From Gemmatimonadota bacterium (lineage in GTDB: Bacteria; Gemmatimonadota; Gemmatimonadetes; Gemmatimonadales; GWC2-71-9), in the NCBI GenBank assembly GCA_022710485.1, contig JAKLGU010000001.1, positions 468,315 to 532,314 on the forward strand: a stretch of DNA of 64,000 nucleotides, read 5' to 3'. Every line of letters begins with the position of its first letter. Within the stretch, counting starts at the first letter, position 1. The translations under genes were made by a program, and so were the position numbers. The notes under the pieces are model-generated. The model saw only the letters and a list, made by a program, of their open reading frames with translations, was not told the DNA's origin and ran no database searches. This document shows, in pieces, positions 4,006-34,769 of the stretch.

Positions 4006-4020
4006 GCCCACGGGCTGCGG

Positions 4021-4347: not shown

Positions 4348-4376
4348 AAAATAAACCGCTAGTTGTGTCGTGACAA
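4348..4376 (-). promoter_or_regulatory. candidate sigma70-type promoter for rpsO
   Basis: The minus strand reads TTGTCA-N17-TATTTT (-35 at 4371-4376, -10 at 4348-4353), about 65 nt upstream of the rpsO ATG. It sits in an unusually AT-rich patch. Confidence 0.35.
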
Positions 4377-4458
4377 GGGGTTGGACATTCGCCGCCCTGC
4401 GGCCAGCCCGCCCGACGCCGCCCTCGTGCTGTCACGTAAGACAATCACGGACAACGGT

Positions 4459-7813: not shown

Positions 7814-8553
7814 CAGATCGGGACGCGTCCGAAGCGGCGGTCCCGCCGCTGGAACTCGAGCACCGCCTCGTAGAAGTCACGGCGGGTGAAGTCAGGCCAG
7901 AGGACGGGCGTGACGTACAGCTCCGCGTAGGCCAGTTGCCAGAGCAGGAAATTGGAGAGGCGGAGCTCGCCGGAGGTGCGGATGAGGAGGTCGGGATCGG
8001 GCCACGGCGCGGTGTAGAGCCGGCGAGCCACGGCGGCCTCGTCCACTTCGGCGGGGACCAGCCGGCCGGCGGCGACGTCCTCCGCGATGAGGCGCGCGGC
8101 GCGCGTGAGCTCCGCGCGGGAGCCGTACGAGATGCAGATGTTGAGCGCCAGCTCGGTGCCGCCGGCCGTCTCCCGGATGGTCTCGTCCACCGCCGCGCGC
8201 GCGCTCGGCACCAGGCGGTCGAGATCGCCGAGGAACCGGACCGCCACCCCCTTGGCCACGAGCTCCGCCCGTTCCCGGGCGATGTACTCCTCGAGGAGCG
8301 CCATCAGGGCGTCGATTTCTTCGGGGGGGCGCTGCCAGTTCTCCTGGGAAAACGCGAACAGGGTCAGGACCTTGACCCCCGCCATGCGGGCGCCCTCGAC
8401 CGCCTCCCGGACCGCCTGCATCCCGGCCTGGTGGCCGGCGGGGCGCGGCAGGGCCCGCGCCTGCGCCCAGCGGCCGTTGCCGTCCATGATGATCGCGACG
8501 TGGGCGGGGACGGCGTCCTGCTGGAGGATCGTGTCGAGCAGCGGATCGCTCAT
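7813..8553 (-). CDS. uppS: di-trans,poly-cis-undecaprenyl diphosphate synthase
   Basis: 246 aa, HVAIIMDGNGRWA...RTSGELRLSNFLLWQLAYAELY. Confidence 0.95.
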   Translation of the reverse strand: MSDPLLDTILQQDAVPAHVAIIMDGNGRWAQARALPRPAGHQAGMQAVREAVEGARMAGVKVLTLFAFSQENWQRPPEEIDALMALLEEYIARERAELVAKGVAVRFLGDLDRLVPSARAAVDETIRETAGGTELALNICISYGSRAELTRAARLIAEDVAAGRLVPAEVDEAAVARRLYTAPWPDPDLLIRTSGELRLSNFLLWQLAYAELYVTPVLWPDFTRRDFYEAVLEFQRRDRRFGRVPI

Positions 8554-8557
8554 GCCG

Positions 8558-9112
8558 TCAGACTTCCATGATTTCCGCTTCCTTGGACTTGATCACCTCG
8601 TCGACGTGCTTCACGTGCTCGTCGGTGATCTTCTGCACGTCCTTCTCGGCGCGCGTCTTGTCGTCCTCGGAAATGTGCTCGAGCTTCTTGATCTTGCCGA
8701 GGGTGTCGGTCCGCGCGTGGCGGATGGCGATGCGTCCCTCCTCGGCGAGCTTGTGGACCACCTTGACCAGCTCCTTGCGCCGCTCCTCGGACAGGGCCGG
8801 CAGCGGCACCCGGATCAGGTTGCCCTGCGAGGCGGGGTTGAGCCCGAGGTCGCCGTCGCGAATGGCCTTCTCGATGACGGGGGCCAGCGCCTTGTCGAAC
8901 GGCTGCACCGTCAGCATACGGGGCTCGGGGGCCGCCACCATGGCCACCTGGTTGAGCGGCACGAGGGAGCCGTACGCCTCGACGCGGATGGTGTCGAGGA
9001 GGGCCGTGCTCGCCTTGCCGCTCCGGATGCCGGTCAGCTCGCGCTTGGTGCTTTCCACCGCCTTGGTCATCAGCTCGCGGCAGTGCTTCAGCAACTCTGG
9101 GATCGTGGTCAT
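8558..9112 (-). CDS. frr: ribosome recycling factor
   Basis: 184 aa with typical Frr length and sequence (…[19 protein letters not shown]…). Confidence 0.95.
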
Positions 9113-9819
9113 CGGACGAGGGTCCCGACCCGCTCGCCACGCAGGATCCGCGCGATGGCGCCGGGTTCGTTGATGTTGAACACCTGGATGGGAAGCTGGT
9201 TGGCCTTGCAGAGCCCGAACGCGTTGGCGTCCATCACGGCGTATCCCTTGACGATCGCCTCCTGGAAGGTGAGTTCCGGGATGAACGTGGCGGTCTTGTC
9301 GGTGCGGGGATCGGCGGTGTAGACGCCGTCCACGTTCGTGGCCTTGAGGATGACGTCGGCCTCCACCTCGAGCGCGCGAAGGACCGCGGCGGTGTCGGTG
9401 GAGAAGAAGGGGTTCCCGGTGCCGCCCGCGAAGATGACCAGGCGGCCCTTTTCGAGGTGTCGCTGCGCCCGGCGCCGGATGTAGGGCTCGGCGAGCGACT
9501 CCATCCGGATGGCGGTCATGACGCGGGTGTGGACGCCCAGCTTTTCCAGGACGTCCTGCATGGCCAGGGCGTTGATGACCGTGGCCAGCATGCCCATGTA
9601 GTCGGCGTTGACCCGGTCGAGCCCCTCGCGGCTGGCGGCGGTGCCGCGGATGATGTTGCCGCCGCCCACCACGAGGCTGAGCTGCACGCCCATGGCGTGC
9701 ACCGTCTTGATCTGGTCCGCCAGGGTCTCGACGACCCGGAAGTCCACGCCCACGCCCTTCTCGCCGGCGAGCGCCTCGCCGGAGACCTTGAGCAGGGCCC
9801 GGGCGTAGGCCAGCGCCAT
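9109..9819 (-). CDS. pyrH: UMP kinase
   Basis: 236 aa, [12 protein letters not shown]...[10 protein letters not shown]...[11 protein letters not shown]. Confidence 0.95.
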
Positions 9820-10424
9820 CAGTCTTCCCCGATCTTGAACCGGGCGAAGCGGCGGACCACCACGGCCTCGCCGAGCTTGCCGGACACTTCCTTCACGAGC
9901 TGGCCGATGGTCTTGCTGTCGTCCTTGACGAACGGCTGCTCGAGCAGCGTGCGCTCCGCCACGAACTTCTTGAGCTTGCCCTCGACGATCTTGGCGCGGA
10001 TGGCCTCGGGCTTCCCCTCGGCCGCCACCTGCTCCTCCGCGATCCGGCGCTCGCGCTCCAGCATCTCGGACGGGATGTCCTCGGGGTTGACGCCGATCGG
10101 GTCGGCCGAGGCGATGTGCAGCGCGATGTCCCGCGCGAGCTGGCCGAAGTCCTCGGTCCGCGCCACGAAGTCCGTCTCGCTGTTGAGCTCCACGAGCACG
10201 CCGACCTGGCCGTTGTGGTGCATGTAATTGACCACGAGGCCCTGGCTCGCGCTCCGCCCGGCCCGCTTCTCGGCCTTGGCGATGCCCCGCGCGCGCAGCA
10301 TCTCACCGGCCTTGTCCATGTCGCCGCCGGCCTCCTCGAGCGCCTTCTTGCAATCCATCATGCCGGCACCGGTGCGGGCGCGGAGCTCGGCAACGTCCTT
10401 CGCGGAAATCGTCTTCGTCGTCAT
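9819..10424 (-). CDS. tsf: elongation factor Ts (short form)
   Basis: 201 aa, [34 protein letters not shown]... Confidence 0.95.
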
Positions 10425-10520
10425 CGGGTATGGCTCACCAAGTAGTGGTGGATAGTGAAACCGCCGCCCAGGCCGGTTGGAGGCCGGGGGCGGCGGCGCG
10501 CTGGATCCCGCGGGGCCGGA

Positions 10521-11417
10521 CTAGGCGTCCGACTCTGCCGCGGCAGCCGGGGCGGCCGCCTCGGCCTCCCCCGGCTCCGCCTCGCCCTTCAGCCGGGCCG
10601 CGATGGCCTCCGGCTTCGGCCGGCGCTTCCGGCGGGCCCGGCGCTTCTTGCGGTCCGCGTCGGCGTCGCCCTCGGTGCCGGAATCGGTGCTGTACGTCTC
10701 GGCGTCCTCGGCGTCGGCGACTTCGCGGGCCGGCATCTGGGCGCGGGCCTCGGCGATCGTCTCCGCCAGGGCGTGGGTGATCAGCATGACGGCGCGGATC
10801 GCGTCGTCGTTGCCCGGGATCGGCACCGTGATCACGTCGGGGTCGGCGTTGGTGTCCACGATGGCCACCACAGGGATCCCGAGCTTGTTCGCCTCGGCCA
10901 CCGCGATCTTTTCCTTCTTGGCGTCCACGACGAAGAGCGCGCCCGGCAGCCGGTTCATGTTCTTGATGCCCTCGAGGTTGCGCGACAGCTTCACGCGCTC
11001 CCGCTCGAACAGCAGCTTTTCCTTCTTGGTGTAGCTCTCGAACTCGCCTTCCTGCGACCCCTGCTCGAGGTCCCGCAGCCGCCGGATCTGCTTCTTGACG
11101 GTCTGGAAGTTGGTGAGCATGCCGCCCAGCCACCGCTCGGTCACATAGTGCCCGCCGCTCGTGGCCGCCTCCGCCTGCACCACGCTCTTGAGCTGGCGCT
11201 TGGTGCACACGAAGAGCACGCTGTCGCCCTTCAGGACGACCGTCCGGAGGAGCTCCTGCGCCTTGATGATCTGGCGGAGGGTCTTCTGCAGGTCGATGAT
11301 GTAGATGCCGGAACGTTCGGCGAAGATGAAACGGCGCATCTTCGGGTTCCACCGACGGGTCTGGTGGCCGAAGTGTACGCCGGCTTCGAGCAGGTCCTGC
11401 AGTGCGGGCTGTGACAT
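10521..11417 (-). CDS. rpsB: 30S ribosomal protein S2 with an acidic/basic C-terminal tail
   Basis: MSQPALQDLLEAGVHFGHQTRRWNPKM... I chose the ATG at 11417, which has GAAGGA about 13 nt upstream. The track ORF begins 14 codons earlier. Confidence 0.95.
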   Translation of the reverse strand: MSQPALQDLLEAGVHFGHQTRRWNPKMRRFIFAERSGIYIIDLQKTLRQIIKAQELLRTVVLKGDSVLFVCTKRQLKSVVQAEAATSGGHYVTERWLGGMLTNFQTVKKQIRRLRDLEQGSQEGEFESYTKKEKLLFERERVKLSRNLEGIKNMNRLPGALFVVDAKKEKIAVAEANKLGIPVVAIVDTNADPDVITVPIPGNDDAIRAVMLITHALAETIAEARAQMPAREVADAEDAETYSTDSGTEGDADADRKKRRARRKRRPKPEAIAARLKGEAEPGEAEAAAPAAAAESDA

Positions 11418-17207: not shown

Positions 17208-17708
17208 TCAAGGGCGCCCGTTTGGATTCGCTTGTGACCGGCACAAGGAACCAGATTCGCGAGTGACCTGAACCACCAGGTCTTCGAAATTCGGTTGCCC
17301 AGATCCATCGCTGCAGCGCAATAGCATGGCTCCAGCCTCCGAATGAGCGACGTGCATTGCGCTGCTTGTCAGGGCGTACAGCATTGTCTTGTGCTGCCGG
17401 TCCTTCCATACGTTGATGAAGGTCAGAGCCGCGGGACCCTTCGCCTCGATGATGGTCAGGCGAACCTGCTCCGGGGCGGTGTCGGTCCAAAACACCAGTT
17501 CCTTGCCAGTGATGCGTTCCACGGATACCTGGCAATGCTGCGCCGATACTCGGAGGCCCTGGACATACTCCGCCGTGAAGGAGACAAACCGAATGCTGAT
17601 CACATCTCCCTCAGCCACCCCGAGCATGAATCGACGATGCAGTACGAGACCCCGGTGCGTGATTGTGCCGGTAGCACTGCCCTCAAAGAGAGGGGTAAAA
17701 TCCACCAA
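17208..17708 (-). CDS. putative immunity protein for the orphan toxin
   Basis: 166-aa ORF starting 33 nt after the orphan toxin stop, with GGGAGG 6 nt before a TTG/GTG start. GC content is lower than in the core genes. No recognisable family; the call rests on position. Confidence 0.45.
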   Translation of the reverse strand: MVDFTPLFEGSATGTITHRGLVLHRRFMLGVAEGDVISIRFVSFTAEYVQGLRVSAQHCQVSVERITGKELVFWTDTAPEQVRLTIIEAKGPAALTFINVWKDRQHKTMLYALTSSAMHVAHSEAGAMLLRCSDGSGQPNFEDLVVQVTRESGSLCRSQANPNGRP

Positions 17709-17741: not shown

Positions 17742-18620
17742 TTAACGATAGGGATCAACAGCTCGGTGCTGATCTGGCGTGACGGCTTCGACCTGAATAC
17801 CCCCGTCCCGACGCGGTAACGGAGTGTGATGCAGCTCGACAGATTCCCCGTCAATCTGAGGTGCATTGCCCCGCTTCATTCGCGATATATTGCCTGCACC
17901 CCAGCGCTCCGCGGCACCTTCAGAAGCTGCCTCGGTCTTCCAAAATCGCCGGCGCTGTGTTGTCCAACTTCTTCCGGCAGTGGCTGCGGTCTCCTGCGCT
18001 GTATGAGCCCCGCTTGAAGTGACGAGCTTGCCTACCCCGGTCGCACCAGCATCTACTCCTTGGCGAGCTGCCCGCCCAGAACCCACGAGGGTGCCAAGCG
18101 CAGTGGCGACTCGTTGAGCACCGCTTAGTGCCTCGCCGGTGATTAGGTCCCGACCAACAACAGCTCCAGCGATGTCGACCGCATCACCGACGCCGGGAAT
18201 CAGCCCCACGGCGAGTGAGACACCCGCGGCCCCCAAGCAACTGCTCGGAGGTATTGGACACAGCCCAAACGGATCGGTGTAGGTCGCCGGGTTGTTCCCA
18301 TTAAACTGGTACAGGTTCAGCCCGCCCGCCACCCCGAGCGGATCCTCCTGCTTCCACCGCCCCGTCCGGCTGTCGTACGCCCGGTTCCGGAAGTAGGAGA
18401 CCCCTCCCGGGGCCCCGCTCCCCTGCCGGTTCACGTCGAAGGTGAAGCCGTTCTGCGTGGCGCCAGCGTACTGCCACGCCCCCCGGTCCGTCGAGACGTC
18501 GGCCTCCACCAGGAAGCCCGAGCTGTCCCCCACCGCCAGCTGCCGGCCCTGGCCGTCCATCACGAAGTAGAGGGTCTGGCGGTAGGCGGCGCTCAGGGCG
18601 AAGCGCCAGCCGGTGATCAT
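17742..18620 (-). CDS. orphan Rhs C-terminal cassette: last Rhs core repeat + DPFGL motif + HNH/EndoVII-like (LHH / GH-E-type) nuclease tip
   Basis: Its first ~125 aa are near-identical to residues ~1270-1410 of the full-length Rhs (…YFRNRAYDSRTGRWKQEDPLGVAGGLNLYQFNGNNPATYTDPFGLCPIPPS). The sequence then diverges and ends ...MKRGNAPQIDGESVELHHTPLPRRDGG...PDQHRAVDPYR. It lacks the Rhs N-terminus, and the M at 18620 is internal to the homology. It ends in a TAA stop. Confidence 0.7.
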   Translation of the reverse strand: MITGWRFALSAAYRQTLYFVMDGQGRQLAVGDSSGFLVEADVSTDRGAWQYAGATQNGFTFDVNRQGSGAPGGVSYFRNRAYDSRTGRWKQEDPLGVAGGLNLYQFNGNNPATYTDPFGLCPIPPSSCLGAAGVSLAVGLIPGVGDAVDIAGAVVGRDLITGEALSGAQRVATALGTLVGSGRAARQGVDAGATGVGKLVTSSGAHTAQETAATAGRSWTTQRRRFWKTEAASEGAAERWGAGNISRMKRGNAPQIDGESVELHHTPLPRRDGGIQVEAVTPDQHRAVDPYR

Positions 18621-18890: not shown

Positions 18891-19337
18891 TCAAAGCAAG
18901 TCCCTCACTCGCCGGTCGACGAGCGCCCTGACGAGTGCCCCTGATTGATCAGCCCGGCGGATTCCCTCAATGGAAGTCCAGGAGCGGAGGGTCGGGATCG
19001 CGATATCCCGAACCAATTCCCGGAAGTCAGTACTACCGCCCACAACCGCTGCACGTCCAGGAGTGGATTCGACTTCCACGTCGGAATTTGCCGGAACGAT
19101 AGTCCCCAATCGCAACCGAAGATGCGCGCGATCTCCGCGCGGCCACTCGCAAGGTTCGATCAGTTGGACCCAGGCCGCGAGGTTCAGGTAGACCTCCGGC
19201 CCCCACTGAGACCGCTGGAGTTCTGCGAAAGCTGTCACCTCACGGCCTCTCAGGTACCACGCCTGTTTCTTCCGCACAAAGCCCGCTTCCTCGAGAAGGC
19301 CGTCAAGTTCTGAGGCGATCGGATCACGCTTCCTCAC
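18891..19337 (-). CDS. putative cognate immunity protein of the full-length Rhs toxin (DUF4304-like by recollection)
   Basis: 148-aa ORF. Its GTG start lies 9 nt after the Rhs TAG stop and is preceded by a perfect AGGAGG (TAGGAGGctgagGTG). Confidence 0.5.
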   Translation of the reverse strand: MRKRDPIASELDGLLEEAGFVRKKQAWYLRGREVTAFAELQRSQWGPEVYLNLAAWVQLIEPCEWPRGDRAHLRLRLGTIVPANSDVEVESTPGRAAVVGGSTDFRELVRDIAIPTLRSWTSIEGIRRADQSGALVRALVDRRVRDLL

Positions 19338-19346
19338 CTCAGCCTC

Positions 19347-22300
19347 CTAGCGTGGCGAGTATGTCTCAACAACCCCTGTCCATTTCTCACCGGTAACCTG
19401 TTCAAGCTCCTTGCGATAGCCTTCGACTTGCCGCTCGCCTCTCCGCATTGCCGACGGGTTATTCGGCTTCAATTCCTTCACGACCCGCGTCTGGTAGTTG
19501 ACCGCGTCTGGCCTCTTTCCGCTTGGGAGCCGCTCCTCCTTCACGAACCCTGGGCCTGGGTCCCACGCACGGTGAACCGCCCGACCTTGCGCAGCCTGAA
19601 CGGACTCCCCTCCACGCGCAACCCTTGCTCCGGCATCCGCCGCCCCTATCACCCGCTTGGCGACCCCGAACGATGGCACCCCCGGTACCGCGCCAGCGAC
19701 GTCAAGAGCCGCGTTCACGAACGTGCCGAGCGAGGGTGCAGCGACGAATTCTACGACACTCGCTACCGCAACCGCGATGTCCACGCAATTGGATGGTGGG
19801 ATCGGACACAATCCAAACGGATCGGTGTAGGTCGCCGGGTTGTTCCCATTAAACTGGTACAGGTTCAGCCCGCCCGCCACCCCGAGCGGATCCTCCTGCT
19901 TCCACCGCCCCGTCCGGCTGTCGTACGCCCGGTTCCGGAAGTAGGAGACCCCTCCCGGGGCCCCGCTCCCCTGCCGGTTCACGTCGAAGGTGAAGCCGTT
20001 CTGCGTCGCGCCGGCGTACTGCCACCCGCCCCGGTCCGTCGAGACGTCGGCGTCCACCAGGAAGCCCGAGCTATCGCCTACCGCCAGCTGCCGGCCCTGG
20101 CCGTCCATCACGAAGTAGAGGGTCTGGCGGTAGGCGGCGCTCAGGGCAAAGCGCCCCAGAAGGAGCTCGTCCGCCCCCGGGGCGCTCACGAAGCGCCAGC
20201 CGGTGATCATCGCCGCCGCGTTGGGCCCGTCATGGGTGGTCCAGACCGCGTCGAGCGCGCAGGGCAGGCTCGGCTGCCCCTCGGGGTCGTACTGGCATCG
20301 GGTGGGGTGGAAGTGGTGCGCCAGGTTCCCGTTGGGATCGAAGCCGTCGGCGTAGCGGTACCCCGTGTTGCGGCCCAGCGCGTCGTAATACTCCCACCGC
20401 TGGAGCGGCGCATTCACCGTCGTGACCGGGGCCGAGTCCCGAACCCGGGACCCGTCGGCGTCGTACCGAAAGTCCACCCGGGTGCCGGAGAGGACGTTGC
20501 GGTCGTACTGGACGCGGTTGCTGAGCGCCGCGATGGCCATGGTGTCCCGGCCCGGGTAGCCCCCGCTCGACTGGTAGCGCACGATCAGGTTGCCGGACGC
20601 ATCGTAGCGCAGCGAGTCCACCTTGAGCTCGTCCCGCTGGATGACGAGCTCGCTCCGCCGGTTATAGCGATTGGAGAGATTGCGCTGGCTTCCCGCCGCC
20701 CCGCCCTTCCCGCACGGCAGGAGCAGGCTGTCCTGGCTGTTGAAGGAGGTGCAGCTAGTCCGCTGGTGCAGGATGCGCCCGATCGCATCCACGGAGTCGA
20801 CCAGGAAGGTGAAGTCGAAGCGGTCGGTGCCGCCCGTCGGCGCGGCGGGATTGGCGGACACGACCCGGCGCAGGACCCCGAGCGCGTCGTAGGAATAGGC
20901 GACGGTCATCCCCGGGATGGGGTAGGTGATCTGCCGCCGCCGGCCCAGCGCGTCGTACGTAAAGGTGAAGACGCGCGTGGCCATGGCATTCGCGAAGCCG
21001 CTGCTGTCCATGCGCACCACCATCGAATCCAGGGTGCCCGTGGCCTGTCCATACACGTACCGCACGGAGTCTTGGCCCCCGGCCACGAGCAGGGTGCGCG
21101 CCCCCGTGGCGTCGTAGGTGTAGTCCAGCGAGTCGGTAAAGCCGGTCACCGTGGTCTTGGTGCGGAGCGCGCCGTCCCCCCAGTACGTCCGGCGGATGAC
21201 GTGACCCTGCTGGTTGCGGCTCACCAGCAGGTTCCCGAGCAGGTCGTAGGTGGAGCTGAGGCTGTCGCCGGGGATGAGGGTGCCATCCCCGGGGAAGGTG
21301 CTGGCCCGTTGGGGGAAGATCAGGGCCGTCCGTCGGCCCAGGGAGTCATACCGGTACCGGGTCACGAAGCCGGTCCGGGTGCGGATCGAGTCCAGCAGGC
21401 CGTTCCGGTTGTAATAGAAGAGCTGCTGCGCCCCGGCCTCGTCCTGCTCCCTGGCCACCTGGAGCCGGGCGTCGTGGAGGTACTTGCGCTTGACGTTGCG
21501 CGGATCAAGGATGGAATCCACCGTGCCAGACATCGAGTAGCCGTAGCGCGTGAGCAGCGTGGAGGGCAGCCCGGGCAGGAAGAGTCGGGTGGAATCGACG
21601 CAGACGAACTGATTCGTAAGGCAGCCGCCCAGCGGGCTCGGCACCGTCGGGTGGGTGTGCTTGCTGGTGTAGAAGGTCTGCAGCGTCTCCCGGTTCATCA
21701 CGTCATAGGTGTGCCTGGTCCGGGTCCCGAGGGGGTCGTAGACATCCGTGATCCGCCCGAGGGAATCCACGACGTAGCTCGTGACCACACCCGCCGGGGA
21801 GGTGCCGGTCCGGAGATTCCCGTTGGGGTCGTAGGTGAAGCCCTGCACCTGGTTGCGGACGCTGTCGGTGCCGGCCGACTGGACCCAGGTCTCGACCTGA
21901 TGCTCCGTCACGCTGGTCACGAGCCCCATGAACGCGCCGCTGGCAATGTAGGCAAAAGAGGTGCGGTGACCGCCCGGGTCGATCACGCTATCGGTCAGCC
22001 CCAGGGCGGTGTAGCGATAGTCGGTATGCCGCCCCAGCACGTCCTGCACCCGCGAGGGAGAATCCGGGGCGTTGGCGTTGGCGTAGGAATAGGTGGTCGC
22101 CTTGGTCGGCCGCAGATCCAGGTGCCGCGTGCTGTCGCGTCGCTCCACCAGGTTGCCCCGCGGGTTCCAGCTCATCCGCACGATCCGGCCGCCCGCCCCC
22201 GGCGTCGTGGCGTGCGGATACTGGACGCGCGTCGGCACTGCCGGAAGCGAGGCCGCACTGTCGTAGGCAATGGTCGTGATGGTATTCAGGCCGAGATTGG

Positions 22301-24149
22301 TGATCCTGGTCGGTTGCCCGAAGCGGTTCACGAGGATGTCGCTCGCGTCTCCCGTCCCCGCGATCGGCCCATCGACCCGGCTCGGCAGCCCAGTCGCAGC
22401 GCTCGTGACCCCGGTCGAGGTGTCCGCGTAGGGCAGCGCGAGCCCCTGCTCATCCCACGGCGTGAGCGCCGTCGTCGCAAAGAGCGTCGCCGCGCTGTCG
22501 GTCTGGATATTGACCACGGTGACCCGGGCATTGTTGGCGTATGTGAAACTGGTATACGCGCTGTCGCCCTGCATCCCCTTCCGAGGATAGATCCGTTTGC
22601 TGAGGCGACCGCCCGTATAGGTGAACCGGGTCACCTGGCCGTCCGGATCGGTGAGCGCCCTGAGGGTGTCCAGCGCCATGGTGCTCTTGAGTCGCCGCGC
22701 CCCGGGGTCGCGGATGCTGTCCAAACGGGCCGTCGTCGCGTTCCAGTGGAAGGTGTAGCGCCGCGCCGTGCCAGTGTCCGGCGGCACCGTGATGGTGCTG
22801 AGCCGCGCCTGCCCCGCCACCGTCCCCCATGAGAAGAGGGTGCGCGCGCCGACCCGGTTCCGGGTGAATCGGTGCCGCCCGGTGGCATCGAAGGTCACCG
22901 CCGCGCCGTGCTTGAGGTCTCGGCGGTACCACTGCTGGCATCCCGGCGTGCAGAGAGTGTCGAAGCGGACCAGGCTGTCGGGCGCGTCGCCGACGGCGCC
23001 AAGGAAGGAGTTGCTGCCCGGCGTGGGCTTCGTGTAGAGCCGGATCGAGCCGTCGCCCGCCACCCACACGCGCCGCGTGCTGTCGCTGGGGTCGGTGAAC
23101 ACCTGCTCCAGCCCCAGCAGCGCCCAGCCCTTGCCGAACTCACTGGCGGAGCGGTTGACCACCAGCACGGTGCCGGTCACCGTGGCGTCATAGGTGCTGG
23201 TCGCGTAGACGTTGCGGGCGGTGAGCGTCATCGGGTACGCGCCCGTCGCGAGACCGGTGATCCCGCGGCCGATCACCATCTGTTTCGTCTGGCCCGCGGA
23301 AAAGGAGGCGTACTGGGCGCTGTCCTTCGCCATGCCGGTGGTGGGATTGCCGACGGTGAGGAAGAGCCGGATGCTTTGCGGCGTGTTGGTGCTCGGCGGC
23401 TGCGACACGTTGGCGGCCACCAGGACCAGCCCAGTGGCGGTGGCCGAATTGTAGAGCAGCGCGAGCGAGCGGTCCCGGCCGAGCGTGCGGTACGCCGGCA
23501 GTCCATGCGTCACGAAGAGGTCGCCGCAGGAAATGCCGGCTGCCTCCCCGGCCCCCGTGGTGAGGCAGAGCCCGCGATCGACATTGCTGCCGTTCTGATT
23601 CTGGAGCACGATCGTCGGCGGCCCCACCGCCTCCACCGTGACGGTGTACCAGCCGTAGTCGGTGCCGGAGCTGAGCCCGACCTCCCCGACGCCGCCCGCC
23701 CCGGCCGAGTACGTCACGGTGACCTCCACCTCCTCGTTGGGGTCCAGACTCACCGAGGAGGGGGTGACGGTCCCGCAGGTCAGCGGCCCCGTGGTGCTGC
23801 AGGTGAGGGTCGCCGAGGCGAAGCTGGTGCCGGTATTCCGGACGACGAAGACGGCCGTGTGCCCGGCGGTGTACGCCAGCACGGTGCTGGGCTCGCCATC
23901 GGGCGTCACGACAACGCCGCCGAGACACCCCGAGACGCACATCGGCGTGATGCCGCCGCCGTCCTTTTCCTGTGCGGGGGCGTTGACCGTGATCAGGAAG
24001 AGGAACGACGCAAGACCGAGGAGGAAGCGATGCACGGACCGACTCCGGTGATGAGACGGTCCTCCACTTTGGCAGGCGGCGTGCCGTGCCGCTCCAAACT
24101 CGATGCCCTGACACGTCAACGACTTGCGTGCTCGGGGGAGCCCGGCCAC
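19347..24149 (-). CDS. Rhs/YD-repeat polymorphic toxin with Sec signal peptide and a PD-(D/E)xK (Tox-REase-5-like) C-terminal tip
   Basis: 1600-aa ORF with dozens of YD repeats (YTYDATGARTL, YRYDSLGRRT, FTYDPNGNL, YRYDADGSRV). The core ends in ...NPATYTDPFGL. The tip carries ...LPSGKRPDAVNYQTRVVKELKP...QVEGY. The signal-like segment HRFLLGLASFLFLITVNAPAQE follows an alternative GTG start at 24035, which has GGAG 7 nt upstream. Confidence 0.9.
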   Translation of the reverse strand: MAGLPRARKSLTCQGIEFGAARHAACQSGGPSHHRSRSVHRFLLGLASFLFLITVNAPAQEKDGGGITPMCVSGCLGGVVVTPDGEPSTVLAYTAGHTAVFVVRNTGTSFASATLTCSTTGPLTCGTVTPSSVSLDPNEEVEVTVTYSAGAGGVGEVGLSSGTDYGWYTVTVEAVGPPTIVLQNQNGSNVDRGLCLTTGAGEAAGISCGDLFVTHGLPAYRTLGRDRSLALLYNSATATGLVLVAANVSQPPSTNTPQSIRLFLTVGNPTTGMAKDSAQYASFSAGQTKQMVIGRGITGLATGAYPMTLTARNVYATSTYDATVTGTVLVVNRSASEFGKGWALLGLEQVFTDPSDSTRRVWVAGDGSIRLYTKPTPGSNSFLGAVGDAPDSLVRFDTLCTPGCQQWYRRDLKHGAAVTFDATGRHRFTRNRVGARTLFSWGTVAGQARLSTITVPPDTGTARRYTFHWNATTARLDSIRDPGARRLKSTMALDTLRALTDPDGQVTRFTYTGGRLSKRIYPRKGMQGDSAYTSFTYANNARVTVVNIQTDSAATLFATTALTPWDEQGLALPYADTSTGVTSAATGLPSRVDGPIAGTGDASDILVNRFGQPTRITNLGLNTITTIAYDSAASLPAVPTRVQYPHATTPGAGGRIVRMSWNPRGNLVERRDSTRHLDLRPTKATTYSYANANAPDSPSRVQDVLGRHTDYRYTALGLTDSVIDPGGHRTSFAYIASGAFMGLVTSVTEHQVETWVQSAGTDSVRNQVQGFTYDPNGNLRTGTSPAGVVTSYVVDSLGRITDVYDPLGTRTRHTYDVMNRETLQTFYTSKHTHPTVPSPLGGCLTNQFVCVDSTRLFLPGLPSTLLTRYGYSMSGTVDSILDPRNVKRKYLHDARLQVAREQDEAGAQQLFYYNRNGLLDSIRTRTGFVTRYRYDSLGRRTALIFPQRASTFPGDGTLIPGDSLSSTYDLLGNLLVSRNQQGHVIRRTYWGDGALRTKTTVTGFTDSLDYTYDATGARTLLVAGGQDSVRYVYGQATGTLDSMVVRMDSSGFANAMATRVFTFTYDALGRRRQITYPIPGMTVAYSYDALGVLRRVVSANPAAPTGGTDRFDFTFLVDSVDAIGRILHQRTSCTSFNSQDSLLLPCGKGGAAGSQRNLSNRYNRRSELVIQRDELKVDSLRYDASGNLIVRYQSSGGYPGRDTMAIAALSNRVQYDRNVLSGTRVDFRYDADGSRVRDSAPVTTVNAPLQRWEYYDALGRNTGYRYADGFDPNGNLAHHFHPTRCQYDPEGQPSLPCALDAVWTTHDGPNAAAMITGWRFVSAPGADELLLGRFALSAAYRQTLYFVMDGQGRQLAVGDSSGFLVDADVSTDRGGWQYAGATQNGFTFDVNRQGSGAPGGVSYFRNRAYDSRTGRWKQEDPLGVAGGLNLYQFNGNNPATYTDPFGLCPIPPSNCVDIAVAVASVVEFVAAPSLGTFVNAALDVAGAVPGVPSFGVAKRVIGAADAGARVARGGESVQAAQGRAVHRAWDPGPGFVKEERLPSGKRPDAVNYQTRVVKELKPNNPSAMRRGERQVEGYRKELEQVTGEKWTGVVETYSPR
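19804..20220. repeat. Rhs core-end homology block (full-length gene copy)
   Basis: Partner of 18255-18631. Confidence 0.9.
24071..24086 (-). promoter_or_regulatory. candidate sigma54 (-24/-12) promoter for the Rhs gene
   Basis: The minus strand reads cGGCACGccgcCTGCc, which is GG-N10-GC spacing against the consensus TGGCACG-N4-TTGC. It lies ~36 nt upstream of the alternative GTG start at 24035 and 112 nt downstream of the AAA+ activator stop. Confidence 0.3.
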
Positions 24150-24197
24150 CTGCCCCAGGCGCGCTGGGCGCGCGCGTCCGCGCGCGCCTCCCGCGGA

Positions 24198-25232
24198 TCA
24201 CACCCCGAGGTGCACCGTGAGGCCGAGGGCCTTCATCCGCCGATAGAGCTGATGCACCGAGATCCCCAGGGCCGCAGCCGCCGCGGAGCGGCGATACCCA
24301 GCGTCCACAAGGGCCTGCACAATTGCGGAGCGGGCCGCAGCGTCAACCGCGCGACCCAGCTGTCCGTTCCCATTCAACGGCCGGTGCCCGGGCCACTGCA
24401 CCGCTCCTCGGAGGACAGACGTCGTGAGCGGCCCGTCCCCCGCCTCGAACAGGGCCCGCTCGACCACCCGCAGGAGTTCCCGCACATTCCCTGGCCAGTC
24501 GTGCCCTGACAGCGCCAGTGCGATCTCCTCGCGGGGGAGCTGAGGCCTCCCCATCCGACTGAGCAGGTGGTTGACCAGCAACGGTACATCCTCGAGCCGT
24601 TCACGCAGGGGCGGGAGTTCGATGGTGATTGCCGACACCCGGTGCCAGAAGTCCATGCGCCACCGGCGGTCCCGCACCAGCAGCTCAGCGGGCTGCTGCA
24701 GCGCCAGGAGAAGGCGAAAGCGGGCACTTCGCTCCTCCCTGTCCCCGACGCGGCGCACACGTCGCGTTTCGAGCACGCGGAGCAGCGCACTCTGCACGGC
24801 CGGCGAGAGCTCGCATGCCTCATCCAGAAAGAGTGTCCCGCCCTCAGCCGCCTCGATAAGGCCGGGTCGGTCCGTGGCGTCCGTGAACGCGCCACGCCGG
24901 GTTCCGAAGAGTTCCGACTCAACCAGCTGGGCGCTGAGGGAGGCGACGTTCAGCGCAACCAGAGGGCCGGTTCGCCTCGACAGCCGGTGCAAGGCGGTCG
25001 CCACGAGCTCCTTGCCCGTCCCCGTCTCACCCGTGATCGCGACGGGAACATCAAGGACCGCGGCGCGTCGGACCTGATCGAGGAGCGGCGCCAGCCAGCG
25101 CGCCGCGCCCACCATGCCAAGATCACTGCCTCCCGTAGAGTCCTCGCATGAGTGCACCTGTGGGAACATGGACCACCTCGGCGTCGCGCCGGCGAGAGAG
25201 TGGAGCAGGGTGCTGCGAGCAGGATGGGCCAC
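24198..25232 (-). CDS. sigma54-interaction-domain AAA+ transcriptional activator (bEBP-like) with C-terminal Fis-type HTH and no sensory domain
   Basis: Walker A VAITGETGTGKE, ESELFG, a GAFTGA-loop variant (RRGAFTDA), Walker B GTLFLDEA, and the HTH AAAALGISVHQLYRRMKAL. Only ~40 aa precede the AAA+ core. The start may be the ATG at 25115 (MVGAARWL, with GGGAGG upstream). Confidence 0.8.
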   Translation of the reverse strand: MAHPARSTLLHSLAGATPRWSMFPQVHSCEDSTGGSDLGMVGAARWLAPLLDQVRRAAVLDVPVAITGETGTGKELVATALHRLSRRTGPLVALNVASLSAQLVESELFGTRRGAFTDATDRPGLIEAAEGGTLFLDEACELSPAVQSALLRVLETRRVRRVGDREERSARFRLLLALQQPAELLVRDRRWRMDFWHRVSAITIELPPLRERLEDVPLLVNHLLSRMGRPQLPREEIALALSGHDWPGNVRELLRVVERALFEAGDGPLTTSVLRGAVQWPGHRPLNGNGQLGRAVDAAARSAIVQALVDAGYRRSAAAAALGISVHQLYRRMKALGLTVHLGV

Positions 25233-25583
25233 CTCAGCCAGGAGATCGAGCGGAGACGACCCGGATGGCTTTGATGGGAGATAAGGCAGGAGATGGGCCA
25301 GCGTCGCAACGAGGGGGGGGCAATCCTACAACGTCTTTTCCTGCAAGTCCTTACGGGTATGCGTCTCCCTCGTTAACACCGGGCGCGTGCACACAGACCC
25401 AAATGATATTCTCGCAACCTATTGAAAGACAGCAACTTACGAAAACCACCCGCACAGTCGATATTGTGCACGTAGCTAACGCCATTAACAGCAATGTCTT
25501 ACGGGTCTGGGAGGCGGGAGTCGAGCCTATTCTGGTGAATTCTTGCCCTCTTGATTGTGCACGCGAGTTCTTCGTCGCTAGAG

Positions 25584-25720
25584 CGGCATTCACCCGTGCT
25601 TCTTGGCCGGGTTCCGGTCCCGCTTGGTCCGGAGGGCCCCACGGGACACACGATCGCGCCGACGCTAGCCTACCCGCTCGACGAGAGTACGGGCGCTCCT
25701 GAATCCGGGGACCCGCCGGG
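25584..25720. repeat. att-like repeat copy B: partial pccB 3'-end copy (25584-25639) plus arm X (25640-~25720)
   Basis: Aligns to 16984-17120 at a constant 8,600-bp offset. Identity is high to 25684 and then decays. Confidence 0.8.
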
Positions 25721-25749
25721 CGCTAGCCACTCGCGGTCGGCAACCCAAC

Positions 25750-25923
25750 AAGGGGTGGGCTCACGCCCACCCCTTGCCAAAGGAAACGCAACTTCTTGGC
25801 GGGTGGCATCGCAGCGGTGCGGTTCCAGCGCTTCCAGGTTGCGTCCCCCTCCACGAGGGGTGGCCGTGAGGCCACCCCGTGGCCGAAGCAATCTCGACCC
25901 GAAAGGTGTGGCCATATGGCCAC
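25750..25923. repeat. cluster of three GC-rich perfect hairpins (REP-like)
   Basis: First, aaggggtgggc-tcac-gcccacccctt at 25750-25775. Second, ggggtggcc-gtga-ggccacccc at 25857-25878. Third, the 16-nt palindrome gtggccatatggccac at 25908-25923. A related ggggtgg-agg-ccacccc lies at 29561-29577. Confidence 0.7.
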
Positions 25924-25946
25924 GCCGATTGCGCCCCCCCTTGCGC

Positions 25947-26038
25947 CCACCCCGCCCCGCTGCCCCCCTGCCCCGCCTACAACGGCATGCACCCGTGCTT
26001 CTTCGCCGGATTCCGGTCCCGCTTGGTCCGGAGGGCCC
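25947..26038. repeat. att-like repeat copy C: the functional 3' end of pccB (stop + last 59 nt) plus 30 nt downstream
   Basis: Matches 16948-17039 at 91/92 positions. The only mismatch is 26010 a versus 17011 g. Confidence 0.9.
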
Positions 26039-27530
26039 GGAGCCCGTCAATGAGCCTGGGCCGAGTGTCGCGCGGGTCGATCACGTCGTCCACGTAGCCC
26101 CGGGCCGCGGCGCCCCACGGGTTCGCGAACTTCTCGGTGTACTCCTCGATCCGGCGCGTCGTCTCGGCGGCCGGGTCCGCCGCCTTCGCGATCTGCTCCT
26201 TGAACAGGATCTCGACCGCACCCTTGGGGCCCATGACGGCGATCTCGGCCGTCGGCCAGGCAAGGTTGAGGTCCCCTCGAATGTGCTTGGAACTCATCAC
26301 GTCGTACGCGCCCCCGTAGGCCTTCCGGGTGATGACGGTCAGCTTCGGCACCGTCGCCTCGCAGTAGGCGTAGAGCAGTTTGGCGCCGTGCTTGATGATG
26401 CCGCCGTGCTCCTGGGCCACCCCCGGCAGGAAGCCCGGCACGTCTTCAAAGGTGACGAGCGGGATGTTGAAGGCGTCACAGAACCGGATGAACCGCGCTC
26501 CCTTGACCGAAGCGTTGATGTCGAGCACGCCGGCCAGCACCGCCGGCTGGTTGGCCACGACGCCGACCGACTGCCCCCCGAGCCGCGCGAACCCAACGAG
26601 GATGTTCCCCGCATACTCGCCCTGCACCTCGTGAAAGAGGCCGTCGTCCACCACGCGGCGGATGACGTCGTGCATGTCATACGGCTGGTTGGCGTTGGCG
26701 GGGATGACGTCCAGCAGCGCCTCGTCCCGGCGGTCCTCCGGGTCCGCGGTCGGCAGCACCGGCGCGGGGTCGAGGTTGTTGCTCGGCAGGTAGCCGACCA
26801 ACTCGCGAATGGCGGCAAGGCACTGCGGCTCGGAGTCGTGGACGAAGTGCGCCACGCCCGAGGTGCCGGCGTGGATGTCGGCGCCACCGAGCTGCTCGAA
26901 CGAGACGTCCTCGTGGGTGACCGTCTTCACCACGTTCGGGCCGGTGACGAACATGAAGCTCACGCCGCGCACCATGTGGACGAAGTCGGTGATGGCGGGA
27001 CTGTACACCGCCCCGCCGGCGCAGGGGCCGAGGATGGCGGAGATCTGCGGCACGACGCCGGAGGCGAGGGTGTTGCGGAGGAAGATGTCGGCGTAGCCGC
27101 CGAGCGACACCACGCCCTCCTGGATGCGGGCGCCGCCGGAGTCGTTGAGGCCGATGATCGGCGCCCCGTTCCGCACGGCGAGATCCATCACCTTGCAGAT
27201 CTTGGCCGCGTGGGTCTCCGACAGGGACCCGCCGAAGACGGTGAAATCCTGGCTGAAGACGTACACCAGCCGGCCGTCGATGCGGCCGGAGCCGGTCACC
27301 ACGCCGTCGCCGAGGTACACCTCGTCCGCCAAGCCGAAGTCGGTGGCGCGGTGCGTCACGAAGCGGTCGATCTCGACGAAGCTCCCCTCGTCGAGCAGGA
27401 GGTCGAGCCGCTCACGCGCGGTGAGTTTGCCCTTCTTGTGCTGCTGGGCGATCCGCTTCGCGCCGCCGCCCTGCTCGGCCTCGGCCTGGCGGCGGTGCAA
27501 TTCATCGAGACGCTTCCGTGAATCTGGCAT
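25977..27530 (-). CDS. pccB: propionyl-CoA carboxylase beta chain / methylmalonyl-CoA carboxyltransferase (12S) family
   Basis: [57 protein letters not shown]...[19 protein letters not shown]...[14 protein letters not shown] chose the ATG at 27530; the track ORF starts 36 codons earlier. Confidence 0.9.
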
Positions 27531-32765: not shown

Positions 32766-32886
32766 GGCGTTCGACGACCCGGGAAGGAGGGCGCAAATAT
32801 AGGCAGGGCACGGGGTTTGCTATCCTCGACGCGCGAATCCTATCCCCAACGCGGCGGATTCTCAACAGCGCGCTGAGGGAGGGCAA

Positions 32887-33264
32887 ATGGCCACGATCCT
32901 GATCGTCGAAGACAGCCCCGACAACATGAAGCTCTTCCGCACCCTGCTCACGCTCCACGGCCACGACGTGATCGGCCTCGGAGGCGGCGAGGGGCTGATT
33001 CGGCACATCCTCGACAGCCGCCCCGACCTGGTGCTCATGGACATCCAGTTGCCGGAGCGCGACGGTTTTTCGCTGCTCCAGGACATCCGGCGCGACGTGC
33101 CCGCCGCCCTGCCGGTGGTGGCGCTGACGGCGCACGCGATGGCCGGCGACCGTGAGCGGGCGATCGGGGCGGGCTTCGACGGGTACATCACCAAGCCGAT
33201 CGACATCCGTGCCTTCCCGGGGCAGGTGGCCGAGGCGCTGAGCCGGGGCCCGCGCGACCGGTGA
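32887..33264 (+). CDS. single-domain response regulator (CheY-like receiver)
   Basis: 125 aa, [10 protein letters not shown]...[15 protein letters not shown]...[14 protein letters not shown]...[19 protein letters not shown] Shine-Dalgarno sequence lies before the ATG. Confidence 0.9.
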
Positions 33265-33848
33265 GGATTGCGCCGCCGCCCCTGAGCGCCGAAGTTACGT
33301 CAGCACGTTCCGTGAGCCGAGGAGAGTCAGTGTCCCGACCACCGCAGCAACCGACGAGACAGCCCGGCGACACGAAGGGGGCGTTGTACGACGCCCTCCA
33401 GGGCGCCGTCAAGTCGGAGGCGCAGAAACGCCAGGAGCAACAGGCCAACCGTGGGGCCGGACGCAGCGGTTCCCGGCTGATGTGGGGCTCCCTGGTCGCG
33501 CTCGCTTGCGTCGGTGCCTGGATCGGGATCACCCAGCCGGACTGGATCTTTCCGAAGCCACCGGTGCCACACACCACGGAATTCCAGGATGCCAGCCTGC
33601 GGATGCTGCTGTACATGGAGTCGCGCCGCATCGAGAATTACCGCCAGGCGCACGGCGTACTGCCGGCCTCGCTCGCGGACGTGGGGGCGGTGCCGGAAGG
33701 CGTGACGTACACCGTCTTGCCGGATGGAACCTTCAGGCTGGATGGGCGAACGGGCGGCGTGCAATTGACCTTCGCCTCGACGGACGATCCGGCGCCCTTC
33801 CTGAAGAACTCGTTCGAGGTGCTCTCACGCCGGCAGGCCCAGAAGTGA
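33261..33848 (+). CDS. hypothetical single-pass membrane protein with a pseudopilin-like C-terminal region
   Basis: 195 aa. The GTG start overlaps the response-regulator stop (GTGA). One TM segment is present ([18 protein letters not shown]). The following ...[22 protein letters not shown]... resembles the GspG/pilin head by eye. Confidence 0.5.
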
Positions 33849-34318
33849 GGCGGCCGTCGTGGTCCCGCCGGGGCTTCACCCTGATCGAGCTCCTGGTGGT
33901 GTTCGTGGTGCTGGGGATCCTCTCCTCGATCGCCATCCTCAAGTACATCGACCTTCGCATGAGCGCGCAGGCGGCGCGCGTCGCTGCCGACTTCAACGCG
34001 ATCAAGATCGCCACGTACGCCTACTACACCGACGACTACCAGTGGCCCGCCGAGGTGAGCGCCGGCGTCATTCCGCCGGAGCTCGTCCCGATCCTGGCCA
34101 GCGGATACACGTTTGTCCGCGACCTCTACACCCTCGACTACGACTACTTCCCGATCTCTGGGTCGGGGCCCGGGGGGTACATCGTCGGGGTGACCGTGAC
34201 GACGCCCAACCCGAAGCTGATGACCAAGCTGGAGCAGATCCTTGGGCGGAACATGCCGTTCATCTCGGCAGGCGGGTCGCTCACCTACATCATCGTGGGG
34301 TCGGACGGGGCGTCGTAG
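33845..34318 (+). CDS. prepilin-type N-terminal cleavage/methylation domain protein (type IV pilin / T2SS pseudopilin-like)
   Basis: The GTG at 33845 overlaps the upstream stop (GTGA). The leader [10 protein letters not shown]|[21 protein letters not shown] has the classical G/F cleavage site and Glu+5. 157 aa. Confidence 0.8.
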
Positions 34319-34364
34319 CGCGGACTGGGAAGGGATCCAGGCGAGTGAACAGGGGGCCCATCGT

Positions 34365-34769
34365 CTACGCGGTGGGCCCTCGTGTTTTCTGGCCGGACTC
34401 GTGCAGCATGGCGGTCACGATGAGCGCGACGATCAGCAACACCGAGTACTCCATGCCGTTCCTGCCCCCACCGACCACGAACCAGCCGTCGGACGCGTGA
34501 ACCAGCAGGATCCCCATGATGAGTTCCGCCGCGAACCAGCCGCACAGCGGGCGCACCAGGAAGCCGAGGATGAGCGCGGGGCCACCGACAATCTCCACGA
34601 TCGTGACAAGCCAGGCCACGGCCGGACCGAGCGGAACGTGCTGCGCGTCGAGGAAGCCCCCGAATCCGGTCACGCCCCCGTCGTAGACTCGGTAGACGCC
34701 GTGAATGGTAAGGAGCAGGCCGAGGGTGGCGCGGAGGATGACGCTCGCGCGGAGGGCAGTAGGCGACAT
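34365..34769 (-). CDS. DoxX-family membrane protein
   Basis: 134 aa with 4 hydrophobic helices, ...LLLTIHGVYRV...VEIVGGPALILGF.... Confidence 0.6.
   Translation of the reverse strand: MSPTALRASVILRATLGLLLTIHGVYRVYDGGVTGFGGFLDAQHVPLGPAVAWLVTIVEIVGGPALILGFLVRPLCGWFAAELIMGILLVHASDGWFVVGGGRNGMEYSVLLIVALIVTAMLHESGQKTRGPTA

Follow-up and report, generated by a model that had tools for sequence, protein, structure and literature searches.

The window analysed here, a 64,000-nucleotide stretch of a Gemmatimonadota genome, carries on its minus strand a gene for a sensor-less sigma-54 activator (bacterial enhancer-binding protein, bEBP) and, directly downstream of it, a gene for an Rhs polymorphic toxin. 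The overall best explanation of the data is that the activator controls the adjacent toxin gene through a -24/-12 promoter located between the two genes. We consider this probable on the basis of domain content, motif positions, conservation and gene linkage. The coordinates of all features are collected in Table 1.

The candidate promoter had been proposed in a first-pass annotation of the same DNA, made from the sequence without database searches. As described there, the minus strand reads cGGCACGccgcCTGCc at 24086-24071, with the correct GG-N10-GC spacing, and the motif lies within a tandem GGCACGGCACG. For comparison, eight related loci were used, namely those of the seven closest homologues with informative contigs and one locus (L018) from a Gemmatimonadales metagenome-assembled genome (MAG) that was found from the Rhs N-terminus. 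In all eight loci, the Rhs-like gene has GGCAY-N5-CTGCC about 60 nt ahead of its start, and GGCACR-N4-CTGCC occurs exactly once in each of L001-L006. The GG-N10-GC spacing is exact throughout, and both the orientation of the site and its distance to the start codon are fixed. When seven intergenic regions are aligned, GGCA and CTGCC are invariant, and the only other invariant columns belong to the leader of the toxin gene; on average, any two sequences are 84% identical across the promoter block, 70% across the leader and 60% across a box upstream of the promoter, and 37-42% across the remaining spacer. The core of the window promoter is identical to that of L018 (GGCACGCCGCCTGCC), and no sigma-70-like promoter was found in 23900-26100. 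Judged from this pattern of conservation, the site is very probably a genuine sigma-54 promoter.

The identification of the upstream gene product as a bEBP-like AAA+ ATPase with Walker A, ESELFG and Walker B motifs and a Fis-type helix-turn-helix (HTH) domain was borne out by the positions of the motifs and by a Pfam search. Sigma54_activat (PF00158) scores 164.3 bits where the cut-off is 20.2 (E = 2.7e-48), and the match covers positions 3-168 of the 168 in the profile; HTH_8 matches with 32.4 bits against a cut-off of 22 (E = 7.5e-08), and AAA_lid_14 above its threshold (7.8e-13). In addition to ESELFG, the protein contains a WPGNVREL block. Walker A, Walker B and this block correspond to invariant columns in the alignment of homologues, and the invariant G, A, T and A are retained in the sigma-54-contact loop. 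Among proteins of solved structure, the best relative is NtrC4 (4l4u, E = 2e-53), with an alignment that covers the full length including the DNA-binding domain; full-length alignments to NifA structures were also obtained. The NCBIfam matches cover only the common core of NorR, NifA, PspF and NtrC. For example, the pspF equivalog models give 171-210 bits against cut-offs of 444-529 (pspF, 209.8 against 443.55), and the FlgR model gives 150 bits against a cut-off of 750. Since all of these matches are far below the equivalog cut-offs, the protein lies outside every named orthologue group. Its sequence confirms it as a complete and intact bEBP, and the identical protein was found on five contigs from four samples.

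The open reading frame (ORF) of the activator spans 24198-25232 in its longest reading, which begins at GTG 25232, and the public annotation places the start at ATG 25115, giving 305 aa under the NCBI name "sigma 54-interacting transcriptional regulator". The most likely start is ATG 25169, which is favoured over both because the N-termini of homologues, the alignment with the L001 protein and the upstream sequence agree on it. In the closest homologues, of 321-347 aa, about 18 residues precede the G(L/M)(V/I)G at the opening of the AAA+ core; the alignment with the L001 homologue starts at residue 1 of that protein and at ATG 25169; the resulting length of 323 aa matches the homologues of 321-324 aa; and GAGG is present 6 nt upstream. 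The public annotation is thus probably 18 codons too short. Only about 18 residues, with the family-specific form MSxxLxxxxP..., precede the AAA+ core, and there is no sensor or receiver domain whichever start codon is used. The earlier claim that the activator lacks such a domain is therefore right, while neither of the starts then proposed, which would leave about 40 residues or none before the core, is the most likely one.

The first-pass annotation had also noted that the sigma-54-contact loop reads GAFTDA. The reading is correct, but the loop is not special, because variants of this kind are known to work. FlgR, which is validated as a sigma-54 activator, likewise has aspartate in place of the glycine at position 5 (Francke et al., PMC3162934), and DVU2106, a GAFTDA protein with sigma-54 targets, is among the variants expected to stay active (Kazakov et al., PMC4641369). 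Of the 120 top homologues, 5 have GAFTDA, 4 of these being receiver-domain bEBPs; representatives of the short family mostly have GAFTGA or GAYTGA, with D occasionally, and the closest relatives carry GAFTGA or GAYTGA. Since FlgR, DVU2106 and these five homologues have the aspartate variant, GAFTDA is, by analogy, compatible with sigma-54 activation. A cautionary case is VfmH, a GAFTDA protein for which an interaction with sigma-54 was not detected (PMC10714721). GAFTDA was also considered as the mark of a sigma-70-dependent protein, and this was rejected; the loop is absent or disrupted in sigma-70-dependent bEBP homologues (PMC3162934) and its critical F and T are retained here. In practice, GAFTDA is no reason to drop proteins from sigma-54 regulon predictions.

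The question of whether activator-Rhs pairs recur in other genomes can be answered in the affirmative. In all eight loci, a short sensor-less bEBP is followed by an Rhs/YD-like gene that encodes a signal peptide. The closest bEBP homologues (45-62% identity, 321-347 aa) are all sensor-less, and the Rhs/YD-like gene begins 60-220 nt after them. The pair is seen in L001-4, L005, L015, L016 and L017, in L006 up to the end of its contig, and in the same order in L018. In L018, the bEBP gene (6585-7490) is split into two frames at a homopolymer within the region encoding GAFTGA (..HKRGAFTGA..); the MAG is a long-read assembly, and the split most likely reflects an indel of the assembly, not a pseudogene.

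The most informative context of the bEBP-Rhs pair is its linkage to a type II secretion system (T2SS). In six of the eight loci (L001(-4), L005, L006, L015, L016 and L018), the bEBP gene is the last gene of a T2SS operon, and in L001, L005, L006, L015, L016 and L018 its ATG overlaps the stop codon of the secretin gene by 4 nt (ATGA), an overlap that points to translational coupling of the two genes. The cluster encodes T2SSE with an MshEN domain, G, F, three minor pseudopilins, K, M, a protein of about 160 aa and the secretin. Three of its products have no Pfam match (111, 160 and 338 aa) and occupy the GspI, GspL and GspC/N positions, the 338-aa protein at the GspL position being a putative L. 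MshEN, present here on the linked T2SS ATPase, is a cyclic di-GMP-binding fold in other systems. Only in L001 does the contig reach upstream of the T2SS operon (cluster at 1253-10004). A second sensor-less bEBP of about 350 aa, with the loop GGFTGA and the Walker A motif GPTGVGKG, is encoded there upstream of T2SSE (1-1004; also in L003), and TGGCCC-N6-TGCCTT, which resembles the TGGCCCatctccTGCC site upstream of the window bEBP, lies about 35 nt upstream of the T2SSE start. Linkage to the cluster is absent in the window and in L017. The L017 locus is a second T2SS-detached, intact bEBP-Rhs module; it adjoins a tRNA-Arg gene and contains three GTGGCAGT repeats, and the bEBP gene itself is preceded by a family-type sigma-54 site, TGGCACggccgGTGCC (features at 2232-2306 and 2700-2830). 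This layout suggests integration as an island and positive autoregulation.

The Rhs ORF extends over 19347-24149 in full. The first-pass annotation preferred the start at GTG 24035, which is preceded by GGAG and gives a clean signal peptide, and this was upheld: in alignments with the Rhs homologues of other loci, residue 1 of the homologue falls on 24035, and the public gene calls give 1562 aa. The Shine-Dalgarno sequence GGAG is at 24046-24043, and the Sec-type signal peptide MHRFLLGLASFLFLITVNAPA|Q at 24035-23973, identified by inspection, is kept in the homologues. GTG 24149 (written ATG 24149 in the earlier annotation) was considered as an alternative start that would make the promoter motif coding sequence, and was rejected because the homologues begin at 24035. 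Moreover, the region upstream of 24035 is kept as non-coding motifs, and an in-frame stop codon lies 33-90 nt upstream of the start in L005, L016 and L017. The protein consists of the signal peptide and an Ig-like region at the N-terminus, RHS_repeat (1.8e-21), YD_repeat_2x, Rhs_assc_core (1.9e-13) and the C-terminal Tox-REase-9 (5.5e-26), according to Pfam and NCBIfam. By every hallmark of the class, as read from its sequence, the gene is an Rhs/YD-repeat polymorphic toxin gene with a candidate immunity gene and an orphan cassette. Of the features of a T2SS substrate, the Sec signal peptide is present and linkage to the cluster is as described above; PAAR and VgrG domains, which mark type VI secretion system (T6SS) effectors, gave no match in the Rhs protein (Pfam, NCBIfam).

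In the mechanism that we propose, the bEBP would bind DNA within the roughly 110 bp that follow its own stop codon, where the G+C-rich palindromes at 24195-24159 are candidate sites, and an IHF-like box at 24128-24115 might help to bend the DNA. ATP hydrolysis by the bEBP would remodel the sigma-54 holoenzyme at GGCACG-N4-CTGC (24085-24072), transcription would start near 24060, and a short leader hairpin would occlude the Shine-Dalgarno sequence. The product would be the 1562-aa Rhs protein with its Sec signal peptide and Tox-REase-9 nuclease tip, followed by the immunity and orphan-toxin cassettes. Lacking a sensor domain, the activator is most likely regulated through its amount. In the T2SS-linked loci, its abundance would follow the expression of the secretion operon, so that the toxin would be made only when the export machine is made, and the T2SS would be the likely outer-membrane route for the Sec-exported Rhs protein. 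The window pair, being detached from a T2SS, would have to rely on a promoter of its own, possibly the weak site at 25300-25285. This site shares CTGCCTTATC with the L018 Rhs promoter.

The inverted repeats that follow the bEBP stop codon are about 100-135 nt upstream of the predicted transcription start, which is the usual place for an enhancer. Palindromes particular to each locus follow the stop codon directly: they are G+C-rich in the window and L001, take the form of three to four GCCAATTGGC repeats in L005, L006 and L016, and read TGAGAATTCTCA in L018. The type of palindrome seems to go with the activator's C-terminal tail (..GITAPRxR vs ..GLTVHLGV). The box with the consensus CGYAA(C/G)TCGTTG keeps a constant spacing to the -24 element in all loci; it is a near-palindrome that fits the IHF core YAA-N4-TTR, and it could be either a DNA-bending site or the real activator site. 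The leader hairpin, which pairs three of the four bases of the GGAG sequence, reaches as far as the start codon. In five of seven loci it is the fold of minimum free energy, with z-scores of -1.9 to -2.9 in four, and its position is common to L001, L005, L015, L016 and L018, the arms in L018 differing in sequence. RNAalifold detected no double-sided covariation in the leader, in an alignment where MAFFT misaligns L018 by one base, and Rfam has nothing relevant in 23800-26000 and no family for the hairpin. The single-sequence folds support the hairpin modestly, and, as modelled, it could serve as a translational checkpoint or as a stabiliser of the mRNA 5' end.

A wider and more tentative picture can be drawn from the T2SS-linked loci. 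Together, they may represent an undescribed weapon of Gemmatimonadales: a T2SS with an Rhs cargo and a sigma-54 cascade of two sensor-less bEBPs, the first of which would activate the secretion operon and the second, encoded by the last cistron of that operon, the toxin gene. The leader hairpin would act as a checkpoint, and the detached pairs would be mobile satellites that use the same regulon and the same export machine. This picture is possible, and we lean towards regarding some of it as overdrawn.

Several observations weigh against the proposed control of the toxin gene, and the rival explanations draw on some of them. In a window of 70% GC, the promoter motif is statistically unremarkable and no better than chance: the pattern GGCACRN4YTGC has 2 matches against 1.33 expected, and sites matching at least 9 of the 12 consensus positions number 24, against 40+-6 in shuffled sequences. 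The significance of the promoter therefore derives solely from its conservation in the related loci. A six-frame translation of the 64-kb window contains no RpoN box. Furthermore, related Rhs N-terminal genes are found without an adjacent bEBP gene (L024, L026 and L027), so that the bEBP-Rhs linkage is frequent and not obligatory.

The best surviving rival, which we still regard as unlikely, concerns only how the activator is held in check: a dedicated antagonist similar to PspA or HrpV, encoded elsewhere, would restrain it, rather than its own expression level. The best-studied sensor-less bEBPs, PspF and HrpR/S, are controlled in this way, and the short N-terminus of the family could be a docking site. 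The first-pass annotation had taken the minimal domain content to imply such an unseen partner, and this found no support, since neither the neighbouring genes in the window nor the eight related loci include a PspA- or HrpV-like gene. The small T2SS-cluster genes without Pfam matches might be thought to encode an antagonist, but they are located at the positions of GspI, GspL and GspC/N, and the translational coupling to the secretin gene is a simpler means of control.

A less probable rival holds that the window copy is an inert or decaying remnant, in which the GAFTDA activator became inactive after separation from the T2SS and the Rhs gene is silent or otherwise expressed. In fact, a tblastn search of the 64-kb window with 13 proteins of the L001 cluster found no T2SS genes, the matches being the bEBP itself and one pseudopilin-like N-terminus at 33863-34051, and no secretin remnant is present in the 800 nt upstream of the bEBP gene; against this, the L017 module is equally detached and yet intact. 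The window copy is the only one among the eight closest relatives with the aspartate loop, and the bEBP gene has a G+C content at third codon positions of 0.80 compared with 0.92-0.97 in neighbouring genes, both of which would be compatible with relaxed selection; however, the position-5 aspartate works in FlgR, the ORF is intact with all catalytic motifs, and an identical protein comes from four samples. Apparent decay is seen elsewhere, in the degraded promoter of L027 and the fragmented Rhs gene of L026, whereas in the window the promoter core is identical to that of L018, and the leader, Shine-Dalgarno sequence, signal peptide, 1562-aa Rhs protein and toxin domain are all intact.

The weakest rival, which is very improbable, denies a sigma-54 promoter altogether and takes GGCA-N7-TGCC as an operator for some other regulator, or for the bEBP itself, which would then act like TyrR, HupR or Rhodobacter NtrC, as an activator or repressor of the sigma-70 type. 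The block is indeed a partial palindrome, which a different dimeric factor could conceivably bind, and on the reverse strand it matches at 9/12 as well (24070). A palindrome would, however, need G at the fifth base, whereas the base found there is C or T (GGCAC/GGCAT), as is the case in sigma-54 promoters. The -12 element is CTGCC, not the consensus TTGCW, and its final C is invariant at a position where the sigma-54 consensus prefers A or T; on the other side stand the spacing, orientation and start-codon distance kept in all loci and the lack of a nearby -35/-10-like promoter. Similarly, the precedent of VfmH is offset by the intact F and T of the loop, which sets the protein apart from the sigma-70-dependent homologues (PMC3162934).

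Control of the toxin gene by sigma-54 presupposes that the host uses this factor. An older survey covered one Gemmatimonadetes genome, and RpoN is present in it (PMC3372290); canonical GAFTGA bEBPs are abundant in the annotations of Gemmatimonadales MAGs. The best match to the sigma-54 consensus in the window, GGGCACGGGGTTTGCT (11/12), is located at 32806-32821 on the plus strand, 67 nt upstream of a stand-alone response-regulator gene that is followed by two small ORFs (ORFs 32887-33264, 33261-33848 and 33859-34500), one of which encodes a pseudopilin-like N-terminus (N_methyl/PilW_C). The site may be a second sigma-54 promoter, and a near-consensus match of this kind fits a genome that uses sigma-54, although it is no proof.

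The Rhs genes without an adjacent bEBP gene differ in what they retain of the control region. The Rhs N-terminal genes of L026 (3000-3200) and L027 (1700-1884) are fragmented; L026 keeps a sigma-54-like promoter, TGGCATcggcgGTGCC, with a similar leader; L027 keeps the upstream box and TGGCAC and has lost the GC of the -12 element; and L024 has no sigma-54-like promoter. Judged by sequence, L026 and L027 appear to carry satellite and decaying versions of this same promoter, and activation of satellite loci in trans is plausible. A scan of metagenome DNA with the promoter-plus-leader pattern gave eight matches, all eight of them chance matches without the leader, a bEBP gene or an Rhs gene.

A profile scan of the genome contigs with a four-sequence alignment of the Rhs N-terminus found two loci only, L018 and L019. 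L019 was rejected as an Rhs locus, because its product is a non-Rhs lipoprotein that shares only the motif GGGIxPxCVxGC. In the Rhs family, this motif, in the form GGGI(T/Q)P(M/L)CVxGC, directly follows the signal peptide (window 23920-23970 on the minus strand, L005, L015, L016 and L018). The L019 protein (9902-10948, from another Gemmatimonadales MAG) is otherwise unrelated, a lipoprotein-like protein of 348 aa with the lipobox LAGCSG. The motif may be a shared sorting or anchoring module.

For the activator, a profile search of 1.84 billion representatives showed no sharp family boundary and allows only a rough estimate of family size; about 22 further short single-domain clusters of 300-350 aa were found above the generic plateau. 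The top profile matches, including P0127-P0137, contain many proteins of 600-1000 aa with two or three tandem Sigma54_activat modules, which have high summed scores, and one such representative also has FHA/YscD domains. These are either real multi-AAA+ bEBP fusions or artefacts of gene calling.

Downstream of the toxin gene, the DUF4304 ORF that is the candidate immunity gene is not called in the public annotation. The Rhs remnant in the orphan cassette matches the core ends of the L004 and L005 Rhs proteins (tblastn), and the small low-GC ORFs flanking this cassette (18891-19337 and 17208-17708, both on the minus strand) are probably immunity genes. The G+C content dips at the toxin and immunity ends, as is usual for such cassettes. 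The whole bEBP-Rhs block is flanked by two acyl-CoA carboxylase genes, for the carboxyl-transferase and the biotin-carboxylase. Just downstream of the carboxyl-transferase gene, GGCCAC/GTGGCC repeats (ggccatatggccac...ggccacggggtggcctcacggccac) are present in 25800-25980 on the minus strand, and these may be an element similar to repetitive extragenic palindromes at the border of the island.

Table 1. Features of the control region and its neighbourhood in the window, with the promoters of the related loci
Feature	Position	Strand	Remarks
Sensor-less sigma-54 enhancer-binding protein (bEBP)	24198..25169	-	323 aa from ATG 25169 (most likely start); Pfam and homologue N-termini
bEBP Walker A, GETGTGKE	25008..25031	-	Sequence motif
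bEBP L1 sigma-54-contact loop, GAFTDA	24876..24893	-	Glycine to aspartate at position 5
bEBP Walker B, LFLDEA	24816..24833	-	D/E columns invariant in homologue alignment
bEBP C-terminal Fis-type HTH (HTH_8)	24228..24329	-	Pfam
Very probable sigma-54 -24/-12 promoter, GGCACGccgcCTGC	24072..24085	-	GG 24085-24084, GC 24073-24072; predicted transcription start ~24060
Conserved box CGCAAGTCGTTGAC, consensus CGYAA(C/G)TCGTTG	24115..24128	-	~36 nt upstream of -24 GG; alignment A6 columns 101-114
G+C-rich inverted repeats right after bEBP stop codon	24159..24195	-	Candidate enhancer (upstream activating sequence) or operon-end hairpin
Conserved leader inverted repeat, GGACCGTCTC...GAGTCGGTCC	24036..24062	-	Right arm in the family GAGnCGGTCC
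Weak sigma-54-like site upstream of bEBP, TGGCCCatctccTGCC	25285..25300	-	Candidate; possible own or autoregulated promoter
Rhs/YD-repeat polymorphic toxin	19347..24035	-	1562 aa, start GTG 24035; Pfam/NCBIfam, homologue starts
Tox-REase-9 nuclease domain	19359..19598	-	Pfam 5.5e-26; motif list from PMC3482391
Candidate immunity gene, DUF4304	18891..19337	-	148 aa, directly downstream of toxin; Pfam 8.6e-07; function from position only
Orphan Rhs C-terminal cassette	17742..18620	-	Rhs core-end remnant, PT-TG and LHH nuclease; Pfam, tblastn
Terminator-like hairpin and T-run	25451..25470	-	Downstream of carboxyl-transferase gene, separating it from the bEBP-Rhs module
Promoter of L001-L004			GGCACAccctCTGCC
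Promoter of L005			GGCACAccacCTGCC
Promoter of L006			GGCACAccgtCTGCC
Promoter of L015			GGCACAcggcCTGCC
Promoter of L016			GGCATAgcgcCTGCC; GGCATA, with TGGCAC ahead (same tandem as window)
Promoter of L017			TGGCACtcttgCTGCC; TGGCAC-N5-CTGCC
Promoter of L018			GGCACGccgcCTGCC; identical to window

Rhs toxins are understood mainly as cargo of the T6SS, of Tc toxins, or of the Sec and type VII secretion routes of Gram-positive bacteria. To our knowledge, how Rhs proteins with a signal peptide cross the outer membrane in diderm bacteria, and how their expression is restrained, is largely unstudied. The loci described here offer a testable candidate answer, consisting of a T2SS linked to Rhs genes, a minimal activator encoded last in the operon, and a promoter with its leader, about 170 bp in all, that can be moved to a reporter. 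They would also extend the association of sigma-54 with the cell exterior and with weapons (the type III secretion system, T3SS, the T6SS, flagella and pili) to polymorphic toxins linked to a T2SS, in a phylum that has received little study. A full-text literature search found no description of an Rhs gene controlled by sigma-54 or a bEBP, nor of a T2SS cluster linked to Rhs genes, including in Gemmatimonadota, in agreement with the first-pass annotation, whose author knew of no such case. The module is real, conserved and experimentally tractable; control by a bEBP embedded in a secretion system is known and the parts are individually familiar, and it is the Rhs target that is undescribed in the literature searched.

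Among the known systems, VasH of Vibrio cholerae and Sfa2/Sfa3 of Pseudomonas aeruginosa are bEBPs encoded in T6SS clusters that switch on weapon genes from -24/-12 promoters. A sigma-54 activator within a secretion-system cluster is thus common to the VasH type and the loci described here. The difference is that the machine here is a T2SS, the Rhs protein has a Sec signal and no PAAR or VgrG domain, the activator has no N-terminal domain, and the window pair is detached from the machine. The link of sigma-54 to the T6SS and VgrG has been noted (PMC12316311).

In domain content, the activator resembles HrpR/HrpS of the Pseudomonas syringae T3SS and PspF of E. coli, which also consist of the AAA+ core and the HTH without a receiver or sensor domain. 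The likeness to HrpR/S extends to the two short bEBPs that flank one secretion cluster in L001. However, these are at opposite ends of the cluster and not adjacent, no antagonist like PspA or HrpV was found in the window or the eight loci, and the direct target would be a toxin gene instead of an extracytoplasmic function (ECF) sigma factor or a stress operon. The aspartate at position 5 of the loop is shared with FlgR of Campylobacter/Helicobacter and DVU2106 of Desulfovibrio vulgaris (PMC3162934; PMC4641369). FlgR is a receiver-domain regulator of flagellar genes, DVU2106 acts on orange-protein/cell-division operons, and neither is a close relative.

For the toxin, the one experimental precedent for T2SS dependence is Bcn-A of Xanthomonas perforans, an antibacterial Rhs toxin with a downstream immunity gene, whose activity is lost in a mutant of the secretin gene xpsD (PMC7259588). 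Bcn-A relies on the housekeeping Xps system, and neither a linked T2SS cluster nor a bEBP or a sigma-54 promoter has been reported for it, whereas the relatives described here are mostly T2SS-linked. The 'T2SS-route' Rhs toxins catalogued by Zhang et al. in 2012 share with the window gene the signal peptide, RHS repeats, C-terminal Tox-REase-9 and the immunity and orphan cassettes (PMC3482391). In that catalogue, the route was deduced from the signal peptide alone and sigma-54/NtrC-type regulators are not mentioned (PMC3482391), and the Gemmatimonadales family differs from it in having its own N-terminal motif, GGGI(T/Q)P(M/L)CVxGC.

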